A DNA stretch of 64,000 bases from an uncultured Leptospira sp. (GTDB taxonomy: Bacteria > Spirochaetota > UBA4802 > UB4802). The DNA lies in assembly GCA_964509195.1 (NCBI GenBank), contig CAZDWJ010000008.1:61190-125189 (forward strand). Reading direction: 5' to 3'. A program made the translations under genes and the position numbers. Each line of letters opens with the position of its first letter. Within the stretch, counting starts at the first letter, position 1. Of this stretch, positions 23,164 to 57,673 are shown in pieces. A model generated the notes under the pieces. That model made no database searches, was not told the origin of the DNA, and was given only the letters and a program-made list of their open reading frames with translations.

Positions 23164-23529
23164 TTATTTTTTGTTTTTATTAAGGGCGATAGTTACTGCA
23201 TCATTAAACCACTGTATAAAAAAAGCCATTCCCTCAACATGAAGGTTGCCTGCTGCTGCCGCATAAAACGATGCTTCTTGAGTTCCATCTTTCAACACAT
23301 TGAATGCGGTTTTTGCATCTGAAAACACCAGCGCAGCATCATAGTGTGCAAGACGCCGCGTTGAAGAGACCACCCCTTTGTTGAAAATGAATGTGCGGCC
23401 TTTGTTGTTTTTTGTTTTTATTGCAATTTTAACATTTACTGTTCCAATGTAGCGCTTAAATGCATTATTGTATTTTGATGCAAATTTTAAGGCCAGTCCC
23501 AGTATGCGAAGTAAGAGAGCGAACCTCAT
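23164..23529 (-). CDS. SCP2 sterol/lipid-carrier domain protein
   Basis: 121 aa. Layout (GRTFIFNKGVVSS...DAALVFSDAKTAFNVLKDG...AAAGNLHVEGMAFFIQ) follows SCP2 domains (ADCT..sd.df..l..Gkl....f..GKLKI.G.M). 12 nt upstream of the TPP-enzyme gene on the same strand. Confidence 0.55.
   Translation of the reverse strand: MRFALLLRILGLALKFASKYNNAFKRYIGTVNVKIAIKTKNNKGRTFIFNKGVVSSTRRLAHYDAALVFSDAKTAFNVLKDGTQEASFYAAAAGNLHVEGMAFFIQWFNDAVTIALNKNKK
23183..23201. repeat. copy of the AGGGCGATAGTTACTGCAT 19-mer (core GGCGATAGTTAC)
   Basis: Identical 19-mer also at 57655-57673. The core 10-mer CGATAGTTAC or its complement also occurs at 33462, 51483, 25625, 43030 and 7669. Confidence 0.5.
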
Positions 23530-23711
23530 TGTACTATCCTTTTATATTTTAAAAATGACAAATACACCTGCAAATGTATAATGAGTTTTGCTATTTTGTA
23601 AATTATTTTTTTTACATATGCTGAAAAAATATGCTTGCGATAAATGCATTTATAGTGTATTATATGTAGAATCTGGAAAAAGCATATAACGCACATAAGA
23701 GGTGATTGACC

Positions 23712-24059
23712 ATGCTTACTGTTTCGGTTAACCAGCTAGGAGATGTTGTAGTAATTGATATAGCAGGTGAGTTTGATATTGATGTAATACGGGATGTAGA
23801 GCAAGCATGGAGCCAGGCATTGAGCAAAAATCCAAAAGTAATAGGATTCAATTGCCTGGAATTAAAATTTATTGATTCATCAGCATTAGGCACTCTGGTT
23901 AAATTTATGAATAGTGCAACAAATAGAAAAATAACATTTACTCTTTTTAATATTTCACCACCAATTGCAACAATTTTTAAAACATCAAAACTGGATAAAT
24001 TTTTCTCAATTAATTCAAAAGAGGATTTTGAGAATAAATATCTTTCTATAAGCAAATAA
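23712..24059 (+). CDS. STAS domain anti-sigma factor antagonist (SpoIIAA-like)
   Basis: 115 aa. MLTVSVNQLGDVVVIDIAGEFD...KFIDSSALGTLVKF is the typical STAS layout. RBS AAGAGGTGA 6 nt before the ATG at 23712. Confidence 0.7.
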   Translation: MLTVSVNQLGDVVVIDIAGEFDIDVIRDVEQAWSQALSKNPKVIGFNCLELKFIDSSALGTLVKFMNSATNRKITFTLFNISPPIATIFKTSKLDKFFSINSKEDFENKYLSISK

Positions 24060-24313
24060 CGGGAATGCAAATTAAGTAAAAAACTTGCAAAATAAACCTA
24101 CCATTTTAGAAATATCTTTGTATGACACAATTTTCATTTAGCGCTATTACTCCCGCTAAAGAGTCAGTCATTTTATGGATACATCAAAAACTGCTTTCAT
24201 TCTGACTTTTAAAATTAAAGAAAGCAATTTTTGCATTTATATGTGTCCATACGGGAACATTCTTAAAATTATTTTTTAGAAGTTCCATTATAATATAAAA
24301 TGGAGGATAGATA

Positions 24314-25510
24314 ATGGCAGACAATGATGTTGTAGTTGTATCGGCATGCAGAACACCAATTGGGAGTTTTGGACAATCGCTTAAGGATGTAAAAGCGTAT
24401 GAGCTTGCTGCACTGGTAATGAAAGAAGCATTACAGCGTGCAGGTATTGAAGGTAGTGCGCTGTCAGATGTTATCTTTGGTAATTGCTTAATGGGATCTG
24501 ATGAGGCTAATGTGGCACGCACTGCTGCATTAAAAGCTGGTATACCTGTAGAGGTGCCTGCAACATCGGTGCAGCGACAGTGTGCTTCAGGTATGACTGC
24601 AGTGGTATTTGGCTCTCAGCAGCTTATTGCAGGGGATTCTGATATTGTACTGGTTGGAGGCGTTGAGTCAATGTCAAATGCTCCCTATGTGTTATGGAAA
24701 GCACGATGGGGACTTCGGCTTACACATTCTGAACTTACCGATGCTATGTGGGAATTGCTCCATTCCGGAAGCGGGCTTTTAGGTGAGCCCTATATTATGG
24801 GACAGACTGCTGAAAATCTGGCGGAAAAATATACTATATCACGTGAAGAACAGGATCAGGTAGCGTATGAAAGCCATAAAAAGGCAGCTGCAGCTATTGA
24901 TTCAGGAAGATTTAAGGATGAGATAGTTCCTGTCCCCATACCGCAGAAAAAAGGGGAACCTAAACTATTTGAAAACGATGAACATGTACGCCGTGATGTA
25001 ACACTGGAGAGCCTGGCAGCATTAAAACCCGCCTTTAAAAAGAATGGCACGGTGACAGCAGGCAATGCATCAGGAATTAATGATGGCGCTGCTGCACTGG
25101 TACTTACCACAGCCAAACGCGCACAGGAGTTGGGAGTAAAACCGTTAGCGCGTATTGCTGCAAATGCTTTTGCAGGTGTAGAGCCACATCTTATGGGATA
25201 TGGCCCTGTACCGGCAGTGACAAAGCTTCTTAAAAAAACCGGAAAAAAATTAGATGACATAAACCTGATTGAACTCAATGAAGCATTTGCTGCGCAGTAT
25301 CTTGCCTGTGAGAAGGGATTAGGGCTTGACCGCAGCAAAGTGAATGTGAACGGTTCGGGCATTGCGCTGGGGCATCCTGTTGGATGTACCGGTGCACGAA
25401 TAATTGTTTCGCTCATATATGAACTAAAGAAGCGCAATGCTCAATGGGGGATTGCAACTTTGTGTGTTGGCGGAGGAATGGGCGGTGCAGTACTTGTAGA
25501 GAATATATAG
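24314..25510 (+). CDS. acetyl-CoA C-acetyltransferase (thiolase II)
   Basis: 398 aa. VVVVSACRTPIGSFGQSLKDV N-terminus with active-site Cys, C-terminal GIALGHPVGCTGARI and CVGGGMG motifs. Confidence 0.9.
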   Translation: MADNDVVVVSACRTPIGSFGQSLKDVKAYELAALVMKEALQRAGIEGSALSDVIFGNCLMGSDEANVARTAALKAGIPVEVPATSVQRQCASGMTAVVFGSQQLIAGDSDIVLVGGVESMSNAPYVLWKARWGLRLTHSELTDAMWELLHSGSGLLGEPYIMGQTAENLAEKYTISREEQDQVAYESHKKAAAAIDSGRFKDEIVPVPIPQKKGEPKLFENDEHVRRDVTLESLAALKPAFKKNGTVTAGNASGINDGAAALVLTTAKRAQELGVKPLARIAANAFAGVEPHLMGYGPVPAVTKLLKKTGKKLDDINLIELNEAFAAQYLACEKGLGLDRSKVNVNGSGIALGHPVGCTGARIIVSLIYELKKRNAQWGIATLCVGGGMGGAVLVENI

Positions 25511-55814: not shown

Positions 55815-56360
55815 ATGGAATTTGAAAAATTTATTTTTAGTTTACCAGATACACCTAGTTTTATTCATCTAAAAAATTTTTATGAAAGTTATTATAATAA
55901 TAGTTCTGATAAAACAATTGTTGTTCCCGTTTTAGACCACAATCTAATTGATATAGATAACTGTATAGCTGGCTATCTTTGGGAGGAAGAAGTTGATGGA
56001 AATGGGCTAGTTTTTGTACCATTTAAATCATTTGAATTAGTTAAGAATTATATACCCTCTTTTATTGAAAAAGGAGAACAACCTTTAAACGTAATAGCTT
56101 TTGACTTTTTACTATGTGCTATATCAGAAAATAAAAATATACCAGCAATGCAACCATATTTAAAAGCTATGTTACATATGAATGATATTGAAGAAGATTA
56201 TTATTATGATAGTGGGGTGAGTATAGTTATATATTTTTTAGATGCAATAAAGGTATGGAGATCTAAAAATATTAAACCATTAAGAGATGAACTAAAGATG
56301 AAATTGAAAAGATATGAAAGAGGAATGCAAAAATGGAATGAAACACAAAACGAAAAATGA
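55815..56360 (+). CDS. hypothetical protein in an AT-rich islet (possible immunity-protein-like orphan)
   Basis: 181-aa ORF. The surrounding sequence is markedly more AT-rich than the flanks. No recognisable catalytic motif. Confidence 0.4.
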   Translation: MEFEKFIFSLPDTPSFIHLKNFYESYYNNSSDKTIVVPVLDHNLIDIDNCIAGYLWEEEVDGNGLVFVPFKSFELVKNYIPSFIEKGEQPLNVIAFDFLLCAISENKNIPAMQPYLKAMLHMNDIEEDYYYDSGVSIVIYFLDAIKVWRSKNIKPLRDELKMKLKRYERGMQKWNETQNEK

Positions 56361-56594
56361 AGCCGCATAATAAGCACGTCCATTAAAGTAGTTTTTAATA
56401 GAACACCATGCTTTATAGATGCTGTTATGACGTATTATACATATTTATGAGATACCAAAGGGGCTAAAGAGGGGTTATTAATAAATGCTCAATTTTGGTA
56501 AAAAATATCCAGAAGAGCAATTAATTGTGGAGTGTATCATTTTTAACAGGCAGTGTTATTTTCTATATTCAAATTGAATTTAGCTGAGGTAAGT

Positions 56595-57656
56595 ATGAAG
56601 TTGTGTACTATCAAAGCCGGGCAAAGAGCCTACAGTATAATTATAGATGAAGGATTACAAAAAGAAAGAATTAAATGTGTACTTGGTGCTGCAGGTGGGC
56701 CAAAGTGGCTTGTGTTGTATGGACTGGACAAGGCTATATATACACAGTTTTTAACAAAACGAAAAAGCCCCGTGCAATTAATTGGTTCTTCTATTGCAAC
56801 ATGGCGCTTTGCTGCACTGGCACAAAAGGATGGTGAAAGGGCAATAGATATTTTTAAAGAGCGGTATATGGCACAAAAATATTCGCTTAATCCTAACAGA
56901 GAAGAGATAACCGCTGAGACAGCGGCAATTCTGGAAACGTATTTACCCGACAGCAAGATACAAGAGATACTTACACATCCGGTACTTAGGCTTTGCATTA
57001 TTACTGCACGCGCAAAACATCTGCTACAGTATGAACACAAATATCCACTAATGGCAGGACTTGCTTTTACCGCACTTACCAATGCAGTGAGCAGAAAATT
57101 ATTGCAGATAGATTTTGACAGATTTATATTCTATGATAAAAGGGAGTTTCCCTCGTTTATCAGGTGGGATGACTTTAATACTCAGTACATTCCGCTTGAT
57201 GGCACAAACATAAAAAAAGCCATTATGGCTTCAGGTGCTATCCCACTTGTGATGAAAGGGGTGCCCTTTACATACAATGGGCATACTACAATGCTGCGTG
57301 ATGGTGGGCTTGTGGATTATCAGATGGATCTGCCGCTAACGCTGAATGGTGGTATTGCGCTGTATCCACATTACCGTGACAGCATTATATCGGGGTGGTT
57401 TGACAAAGCGTTACCGTACCGCAGGAGGCAACACAACCTGGAGGATATCTGTATTATTTCGCCTAATAAAGAAGCTATTTTCTCACTGCCGTATAAAAAG
57501 ATCCCTGACAGAAATGATTTTTATACATTTGCAGGCAATGATAAAGAACGCCTCTCGTTCTGGGAAAAGGCAGTTGAATTGGGTATACACATGGCAGAAG
57601 AATTTATGGAACTGGTGGACAGTGGAAAAATTAAAGACAGGGTTGTGTTATTGTAG
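56595..57656 (+). CDS. patatin-like phospholipase domain protein with degenerate nucleophile motif
   Basis: Oxyanion-hole-like GAAGGPKW (patatin GGGxRG), nucleophile position GSSIA (instead of GxSxG), catalytic-Asp motif DGGLVDY (DGG). RBS GAGGTAAGT before the ATG at 56595. Confidence 0.5.
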   Translation: MKLCTIKAGQRAYSIIIDEGLQKERIKCVLGAAGGPKWLVLYGLDKAIYTQFLTKRKSPVQLIGSSIATWRFAALAQKDGERAIDIFKERYMAQKYSLNPNREEITAETAAILETYLPDSKIQEILTHPVLRLCIITARAKHLLQYEHKYPLMAGLAFTALTNAVSRKLLQIDFDRFIFYDKREFPSFIRWDDFNTQYIPLDGTNIKKAIMASGAIPLVMKGVPFTYNGHTTMLRDGGLVDYQMDLPLTLNGGIALYPHYRDSIISGWFDKALPYRRRQHNLEDICIISPNKEAIFSLPYKKIPDRNDFYTFAGNDKERLSFWEKAVELGIHMAEEFMELVDSGKIKDRVVLL

Positions 57657-57673
57657 GGCGATAGTTACTGCAT
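57655..57673. repeat. second copy of the AGGGCGATAGTTACTGCAT 19-mer, immediately after the patatin-like gene stop
   Basis: Exact 19-nt identity with 23183-23201. Confidence 0.5.

Follow-up and report, generated by a model that had tools for sequence, protein, structure and literature searches.

Why does one short DNA word recur on both strands of a 64-kb stretch of chromosome from an uncultured Spirochaetota lineage (about 38% GC content), mostly inside genes, and what kind of signal could it be? The stretch, called the window here, has 51 open reading frames (ORFs), with a coding fraction of 86% and 13.6% of non-coding DNA. An earlier note on this DNA had pointed to copies of the 10-mer CGATAGTTAC and had taken them as a genuine repeated element at the DNA level and not as chance, which agrees with our results, the enrichment in the window being larger than it reported. 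The signal is real, and stronger and more structured than had been described. The motif is a clade-specific, dispersed and unpolarised signal at the level of DNA, found in both orientations, in at least four reading frames and also between genes, and it is very likely, stated in this general form, that the signal is under selection.

Enrichment and form of the motif

Counted against Markov and shuffled backgrounds in the window, the 8-mer, 10-mer and 12-mer forms of the motif were all in strong excess. The 10-mer CGATAGTTAC was found in eight copies on both strands (+ strand at 23187, 27957, 33460, 51483 and 57659; - strand at 7669, 25625 and 43029), compared to 0.04 ± 0.2 copies (maximum 1) in dinucleotide-preserving shuffles. 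The claim of at least seven copies far above chance thus holds, with the copy at 27957 having been overlooked, and the loci named were correct while their coordinates were off by 0-2 nt. When all 8-mers of the window were ranked by z-score, the first was GGCGATAG with 23 copies versus about 1.4 expected under Markov models of order 1 to 3, and the shorter words GCGATAG and CGATAG had 37 and 57 copies, the latter versus about 17 expected. The 12-mer GGCGATAGTTAC with at most two mismatches occurred 24 times versus 2.3 ± 1.6 in shuffles; these 24 are called strong copies, at a density of about one per 2.7 kb, and the remaining CGATAG copies are called weak. The 8-mer is thus over-represented about 16-fold and the 10-mer about 200-fold.

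Alignment of all copies gave an asymmetric motif of about 12 bp, (T-rich)GGCGATAG[T/C][T/A]nC, that is G-G-C-G-A-T-A-G-[T/C]-[T/A]-n-C, with an 8-bp core of high information, GGCGATAG. The flanks are mildly T-rich on the 5' side and TG is frequent 3' of the 12-mer, giving (T-rich)GGCGATAGTTAC(TG). The reverse complement of the core is CTATCGCC, and the motif is therefore not palindromic. The 19-mer AGGGCGATAGTTACTGCAT, reported earlier as identical at two loci, is indeed exact at 23183-23201 and 57655-57673, and a copy with three mismatches lies at 43024-43042 (-). Literature searches with the motif string gave primer-type matches only, and nothing specific was found on over-represented oligomers or Chi in spirochaetes.

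Coding context and repeat structure

Codon or amino-acid context could give rise to such a word, and the earlier note allowed that part of the signal could come from V-T-I-A/D peptides. Many of the coding copies do encode x-Ile-Ala/Val in either orientation (V-T-I-A, A-I-A/V). However, when the 51 ORFs were shuffled synonymously with the proteins and overall codon usage kept (300 trials), coding GGCGATAG fell to 1.58 ± 1.24 copies (maximum 7) versus 20 observed, and coding CGATAGTTAC to 0.10 versus 5 observed, which rejects codon and amino-acid bias. The coding copies of CGATAG also span four to five classes of frame and orientation (xCG-ATA-Gxx, xCT-ATC-Gxx, GAT-AGx and CTA-TCG), encoding A-I-A/V, T/A-I-A, G-D-S and E-L-S, so that the GDS and ELS frames are in use as well as the non-coding copies.

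The suggestion of a miniature repeat family fares no better. Information content is zero beyond about -2 to +9 relative to the core, and a miniature inverted-repeat transposable element (MITE) or repetitive extragenic palindrome (REP) is rejected because nothing is common to the copies beyond about 12 nt. Such an element would be an intergenic unit of at least 20 nt with extended shared sequence or a hairpin, whereas the copies are without terminal repeats or target duplications, no fold is predicted, and 86% of them lie in frame inside conserved genes. A coding bias or a miniature mobile repeat is thus extremely improbable as the source of the motif, being refuted by the synonymous shuffle and the copy alignment.

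Clustering of intergenic copies at gene boundaries, as first described, is not a general property. Of the core copies 50/57 are within genes (7/57 non-coding, compared to the non-coding fraction of the window, p=1.0), as are 19/24 of the strong copies (5/24 non-coding, p=0.22), and enrichment of copies near gene ends in the window was not significant. Rfam gave no RNA family at any motif copy.

Distribution among relatives

The closest homologues of the AsmA-like (27529-29616, - strand) and patatin-like (56553-57656) proteins are in metagenome-assembled genomes of uncultured 'Spirochaetota bacterium'. Together with the window region, the syntenic counterparts from these relatives give about 170 kb of in-group sequence, about 110 kb of it from the relatives. 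The AsmA-like protein is 89, 80, 79, 78 and 65% identical in loci L082, L083, L084, L086 and L085, respectively, and the patatin-like protein is 76% identical in L214. All six loci (about 38-39% GC) are enriched for the motif, and in each of them the top 8-mer by unbiased z-score is a sub-word of it. No enrichment was seen in a more distant spirochaete locus (L216/L217; patatin-like protein 48% identical, GC 46%), in three non-syntenic 60%-GC contigs with acyl-CoA dehydrogenase homologues 79-82% identical (L211-L213), or in 1.26 Mb from 80 genomes of other, distant phyla, obtained by scanning a genome collection with LeuC as the query (33 GGCGATAG, or 1.7 per 64 kb). Since the in-group loci are enriched and the controls are not, the motif belongs, among the sequences compared, to a single clade. 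Some differences between sub-lineages hint at drifting dialects: C at +6 is frequent in the window, in L082 and in L083 but rare in L084 and L214, and few copies in L085 and L086 have the GG prefix, with small numbers in each case.

Conservation and turnover

Many strong copies, among them those at 23187, 27957, 30298, 33460, 49880, 51483, 55415, 57659, 61083 and 61967, have 12-16 nt of identity in relatives, third codon positions included, and for several copies this persists down to 65% protein identity. Selection was tested on third positions of conserved codons able to change synonymously, with one relative per region (L083 and L214). Identity was 36/43 in strong footprints compared to 4777/8125 (59%) elsewhere (odds ratio 3.6, p=0.0009); L214 alone gave 27/31 versus 58% (p=0.0007), and six non-independent relatives pooled gave 69/89 (0.775) versus 0.612. 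Weak copies had a synonymous identity of 0.54, not above the background of 0.61, which is why all CGATAG copies taken together, unstratified, show no excess of synonymous conservation and the signal appears only after the split into strong and weak. At synonymous sites purifying selection preserves the strong copies, and the turnover of the weak ones is neutral. Gains by synonymous point changes were also seen, at 26388, where GCTATTG of the relatives is GCGATAG in the window, and at 31133 and 37016.

Turnover of this kind would be in keeping with a functionless by-product, regenerated by context-specific mutation or repair bias such as very-short-patch-type correction linked to a methyltransferase, and a repair ratchet was proposed for the cyanobacterial word HIP1 by Elhai, as cited in PMC5861425. 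Many of the differences at orthologous sites are indeed transitions at CpG or its neighbours (CAATAG/CGATAG, GACAG/GATAG, GATGG/GATAG), in addition to the neutral evolution of the weak copies. The bias would, however, predict a depleted one-mismatch precursor, and the transition neighbours of the core are all mildly enriched at 1.8-2.1 times expectation, none of them depleted, in a comparison of low power. Strong copies are also more conserved than the synonymous sites around them, and the copies, as given below, are spaced more regularly than at random, a feature not predicted by a purely mutational process. We therefore consider the by-product quite unlikely.

Orientation and spacing

GC skew at 4-fold sites has the same sign for genes of the + strand (+0.14) and of the - strand (+0.13) and for non-coding DNA (+0.10), so the window is on one replichore with + as the G-rich strand. 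The strong copies are divided 16+/8- in the window, and with 15 distinct copies from relatives 24/39 (62%) are on the + strand, where base composition alone predicts 56-60%; there is thus no polarity beyond base composition. Relative to transcription 9 copies are sense and 14 antisense. The strong copies are spaced more evenly than random (coefficient of variation of the gaps 0.62 versus 0.96, p=0.007, 24 sites), and the largest gap between them is 5.9 kb (p=0.02).

The FtsK-orienting (KOPS) and architecture-imparting (AIMS) octamers are over-represented and have a strong strand skew, typically above 80%, that switches at ori and ter. Like them, the motif is an over-represented oligomer dispersed through genes, but with only 62% of copies on the G-rich strand a KOPS-like skew is excluded (p=2e-6 versus 90%).

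A Chi-like role would make the motif a recombination hotspot or self marker that RecBCD or AddAB recognises on single-stranded DNA in the repair of double-strand breaks, and several points are in its favour. The window consists of housekeeping and metabolic genes, and the 8-nt core is enriched there at about one per 2.8 kb, on the scale of Chi in Escherichia coli (about one per 5 kb), with even spacing and conservation across relatives. Motifs of the Chi type may be common to many or nearly all bacteria (PMC8022716), and none is defined for this lineage. On the other hand, Chi is over-represented in core genomes with polarity toward the leading strand (PMC8022716), whereas the motif has no such polarity beyond composition, and 75% polarity is disfavoured (p=0.04, in a small sample of 39 copies). 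A second over-represented motif, GGGTCAGAGC, is also present in the window. The enrichment factor of our motif and its longer footprint, a graded 12 nt with a T-rich flank, exceed those of the usual Chi. A Chi-like role thus seems unlikely.

Possible function of the motif

On the features tested, the motif is a clade-specific hyper-abundant genomic word that fits none of the known classes, being unpolarised, non-palindromic and not associated with terminators. We infer that a sequence-specific protein of the lineage recognises it on duplex DNA and that what matters is a site every few kb in either orientation, because there is no polarity, there are no common flanks and the spacing is even.

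Our leading guess, a tentative one drawn from analogy, is that the motif may be a self-DNA tag of the uptake-sequence type, comparable to the DNA uptake sequences (DUS) and uptake signal sequences (USS), collectively DNA uptake-enhancing sequences (DUES). An uptake or recombination signal was also among the options in the earlier note. A surface receptor would preferentially take up DNA fragments bearing the tag, and recombination would then spread and maintain it. DUES are described in 10.1101/2025.10.24.684340 as short motifs with hundreds to thousands of copies, within and between genes, and with clade dialects. The motif resembles them in being a short, asymmetric and clade-confined word (9-12 nt in DUES) of locally high copy number, here 23 GGCGATAG versus 1.4 expected and 24 strong copies in 64 kb with enrichment in the relatives too, and in its graded consensus with an A/T-rich flank. 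It also resembles them in its use of several frames within genes together with intergenic copies and both orientations, in the conserved orthologous positions, in the even spacing and in the hints of clade dialects. It differs in coming from Spirochaetota and in its unrelated sequence.

Several points weigh against an uptake tag. The same source gives DUES as described only for Neisseriaceae (DUS) and Pasteurellaceae (USS), and places about half of them in terminators, often as inverted pairs (10.1101/2025.10.24.684340). The motif, in contrast, has no association with terminators, its non-coding share being not significantly larger than that of the window, and the sole inverted pair that is conserved, described below, is not predicted to fold as one. 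Uptake sequences in Haemophilus influenzae or Neisseria meningitidis have a density of about one per kb, and that of the motif is lower. To our knowledge no natural competence is known in spirochaetes, and no competence genes were found among the about 170 kb of in-group sequence, a sample limited to this region. The density itself comes from the 64-kb region and its syntenic counterparts and could be regional and not genome-wide; moreover, the pooled conservation test uses relatives that are not independent and the spacing test rests on 24 sites. That an uncultured Spirochaetota clade uses the motif for DNA uptake or self-recognition, as the first outside the two proteobacterial families known for uptake sequences, is accordingly a doubtful proposal, if a conceivable one.

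An architectural or nucleoid-associated site analogous to HIP1 is also possible, and likewise far from probable. An abundant DNA-binding protein or an orphan methyltransferase would read the motif, and regular sites would be selected for chromosome organisation, strand-marking in repair or a similar purpose. HIP1 of cyanobacteria is a hyper-abundant palindromic 8-mer, conserved within and between ORFs, with enriched one-mismatch variants and with selection favoured over pure mutational replenishment (PMC5861425). The hyper-abundance of our motif, its conservation inside and between ORFs in many frames, the lack of an RNA or peptide rationale and the non-random spacing are the same set of properties on which Xu et al. 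based their proposal of selection and a role in nucleoid structure for HIP1 (PMC5861425). Its over-representation is also within the 15- to 300-fold range of HIP1-type palindromes. In sequence comparison only, and possibly by coincidence, the core and HIP1 (GCGATCGC) share the half GCGAT, and the variant GCGATAGC is one position from HIP1. However, HIP1 is a perfect palindrome tied to GATC/CGATCG methyltransferases, whereas the motif is asymmetric and extends to 12 nt. Known occlusion and macrodomain sites are palindromic, unlike the motif. No candidate protein or methyltransferase was seen in the sampled region, and as the function of HIP1 is itself unproven, the analogy explains little.

Clade-specific hyper-abundant DNA words are rare and informative. 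Uptake sequences, Chi and KOPS each brought a chromosome-reading machine to light, while HIP1 has been unexplained for decades. If the motif is an uptake tag, it would mean natural, sequence-selective transformation in spirochaetes, a new phylum for it. The receptor and the sequence would both be new, and most tags would lie within genes and not in terminators. If it is architectural, it would provide a tractable non-cyanobacterial counterpart to the HIP1 problem. Whichever reading holds, the motif offers a practical means to bin metagenome sequences and to recognise DNA of the lineage among them.

Individual copies

The copies in the window are as follows.

817-828 (+): strong GGTGATAGTTAC, one mismatch, in the radical-SAM gene, antisense
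1750-1761 (+): marginal GCCGATAATTAC, two mismatches with the core broken, intergenic
5787-5794 (+): core copy GGCGATAG with 3' part CTCT, coding
7669-7680 (-): strong GTCGATAGTTAC, coding, in the Na/H exchanger-like gene, sense
11938-11949 (+): strong GGCGATAGTTTC with a T-run as 5' flank, coding, in the MCP gene, antisense
13560-13567 (+): core copy GGCGATAG, coding, in the TPR gene
14749-14760 (-): strong GGCGATAGTATC, coding
19909-19920 (+): strong TTTTTTGGCGATAGTATC, coding, in the hydrolase gene, antisense
21615-21622 (-): core copy GGCGATAG in the TPP-enzyme gene, kept in L082, L083 and L084
23183-23201 (+): 19-mer AGGGCGATAGTTACTGCAT with the perfect 12-mer at 23185-23196, at the 3' end of the 121-aa ORF 23164-23529 (-), within its last codons, and 32 nt upstream of where the TPP-enzyme gene starts; L082, L083, L084 and L085 keep 16 nt
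25625-25636 (-): perfect 12-mer, intergenic, 100 nt upstream of leuC and some 15 nt beyond the terminator hairpin of the thiolase gene
26386-26393 (+): core copy GGCGATAG in leuC, a window-specific gain by two synonymous changes; relatives have GGCTATTG or GGCAATTG
27002-27009 (-): TTTTTTGGCGATAG in the 25-nt leuC-leuD spacer, also in L082 and L083, with shifted variants in L084 and L086
27955-27966 (+): strong TTCGATAGTTAC in the AsmA-like gene; CGATAGTTACCT identical in 5/5 relatives, down to 65% protein identity
28729-28740 (+): near copy GGCGATTGTTAC, coding
30298-30305 (-): core copy GGCGATAG in the cNMP-binding gene, conserved in four relatives
33381-33392 (-): AGCGATAGTTAA, intergenic, only in the window, L084 and L086
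33458-33469 (+): AGCGATAGTTAC, intergenic, just downstream of the glgX stop, an invariant block in all relatives
33489-33500 (-): GACGATAGTGTA, inverted partner of 33458-33469 with 7-bp arms 25 nt apart, invariant in all relatives
37014-37021 (+): core copy GGCGATAG in uxuA; relatives mostly have GACAG (recent gain)
38054-38065 (+): marginal GAAGATAGTTAC, coding
40235-40246 (+): strong GGCGATAGTTCC, coding, in the GH38-like gene
42861-42868 (+): core copy GGCGATAG, 3 nt downstream of a copy of the second motif (GCTCTGACCC)
43029-43040 (-): perfect 12-mer in the MBL-fold gene, 8 nt from a copy of GGGTCAGAGC
44559-44566 (+): core copy GGCGATAG, coding, in the Nramp gene
45309-45320 (-): GGCGATAGTGAA, coding, in the PfkB gene; core conserved in L214
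49876-49887 (-): strong GGCGATAGTTAT in the histidine-kinase gene, conserved in L214
51481-51492 (+): strong GTCGATAGTTAC(TG) in the response-regulator gene; 16/16 nt identical in L214
51799-51810 (+): GGCGATAGCTAA, conserved in L214 as GGCGATAGTTAA
55413-55424 (+): GGCGATAGTGAA in the pstS-like gene, conserved in L214
57655-57673 (+): second 19-mer AGGGCGATAGTTACTGCAT with the perfect 12-mer at 57657-57668, beginning inside the TAG stop of the patatin-like gene
58307-58318 (+): marginal GGCGATAAATAC, coding
61079-61090 (-): GGCGATAGTTCA in proS, conserved in L214
61965-61976 (+): TTTTTTGGCGATAGTTCC in proS; 16/16 nt identical in L214

The intergenic strings quoted in the earlier note are present, with GGGTAACTATCGCCAAAA at 25623-25640, the string beginning CTATCGCC at 27002 and an inverted pair at 33381-33392 (-) and 33458-33469 (+). 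This pair exists as described, but the one conserved in relatives is 33460 (+)/33493 (-) and not 33385/33460. In the spacer downstream of glgX (33241-33498) conservation across five lineages is highest in the blocks of the inverted copies at 33460 (+) and 33493 (-), and the third copy, at 33385 (-), is present in only three. The pair 33460/33493 has no significant fold (z-score -1.5), its arms are unused in the predicted fold and no terminator is predicted, which rules out a terminator or hairpin reading. The copy at 25625 closely follows a clear terminator hairpin that belongs to the thiolase gene, and that at 57657 begins one base after the stop codon of the patatin-like gene.

Copies in conserved intergenic blocks, namely in the spacer that is downstream of glgX and precedes the 556-aa gene, ahead of leuC and between leuC and leuD, and above all the conserved inverted copies at 33460/33493, would suit an operator for a transcription factor that controls a large regulon. 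The earlier note had a regulator binding site among its proposals, and in its classical form this is unlikely, given that conserved copies are found in the middle of genes at intervals of about 2.7 kb. There is no significant excess of non-coding copies, with most of the strong ones intragenic and many of these mid-gene and conserved there, the neighbouring genes are functionally unrelated, and the site, which is asymmetric, does not keep to one position with respect to start codons. As a general explanation, an operator is thus highly improbable.

The exact 19-mer had been taken as an argument for a genuine repeated element, but our data do not make it a unit of repeat in itself. In L214 the copy at 57659 is AAGGCGATAGTTACCG, with the 12-mer kept and the flanks of the 19-mer not. 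A search of a metagenome collection gave three occurrences of the 19-mer, each on an unrelated contig without further motif copies, and therefore the 19-nt identity of the two loci is that of two strong copies which happen to share flanking bases, and no longer repeat unit is involved. The lineage was not retrieved from the metagenome collection by the exact 19-mer, although the relative L084 is a JGI metagenome contig. The 14-mer GGCGATAGTTACTG gave, among the matches listed for viral contigs, single ones only, consistent with chance. A separate observation is that a 1.36-kb metagenome contig of 48% GC (L210) has at 856-879 the 24 nt of window 23180-23203, TTAAGGGCGATAGTTACTGCATCA, without a difference. 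The match is inside an unrelated and apparently repetitive ORF encoding the same peptide, DAVTIALN, there is no other similarity to the window, and by a rough estimate chance is an unlikely source of such a match, even with so large a collection.

Two gene labels can be noted here. The 121-aa ORF 23164-23529 (-) had been called SCP2, a label that Pfam does not support, as neither it nor its orthologues in relatives has a match there. The 556-aa 'coiled-coil' ORF 31570-33240 (-) has no Pfam match either and is conserved in all relatives.

Second over-represented word

The word GGGTCAGAGC has six exact copies, at 16416-16425 (+), 39759-39768 (+), 41550-41559 (+), 42849-42858 (-), 43011-43020 (-) and 63195-63204 (-), with a strand split of 3:3; with at most one mismatch seven were observed versus a shuffle mean of 1.3. 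Two of the copies lie 3-8 nt from copies of GGCGATAG inside the MBL-fold gene 42561-43262, and the copy at 39759 is conserved in L083. This word could be a second genomic signal, for example the Chi of the lineage.

Neighbouring genes and accessory regions

LeuC (leuC/leuD, 25736-27527) has at most 71% identity among the matches listed, which come from Bacillota, Nitrospirota, Thermodesulfobacteriota and other phyla; they fit a widely shared 419-aa LeuC type with little lineage signal. The acyl-CoA dehydrogenase 57821-59518 behaves in the same way, its 79-82% identity being to proteins on the non-syntenic 60%-GC contigs.

Relatives have accessory insertions at one chromosomal spot next to the ADH and TPP-enzyme genes, which looks like a local hotspot. 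In L084 (19292-22097) it holds a type I restriction-modification system with HsdM and a helicase-like gene, in L083 (18136-18947) a nucleotidyltransferase/HepT toxin-antitoxin pair with one strong motif copy inside the nucleotidyltransferase gene, and in L082 (15314-18396) a hydrolase, an aldo-keto reductase and an AraC regulator. In the window, the 1.1 kb between the PfkB-family kinase gene and pstC (45892-47005) has only short broken ORFs and no motif copy, the corresponding spacer of L214 being about 330 nt, and it is likely a decayed gene or an insertion remnant. The region from pstA to the histidine-kinase gene (48983-49500) contains small ORFs where L214 has a BrnT-toxin/CopG-antitoxin pair, and may be a degraded or variant toxin-antitoxin cassette. 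The sole Rfam match of the window, unrelated to the motif, is a fluoride riboswitch at 8298-8358 (-) (RF01734, 43.8 bits, E=7.6e-9), directly upstream of the Na+/H+ exchanger-family gene 7026-8249 (-).

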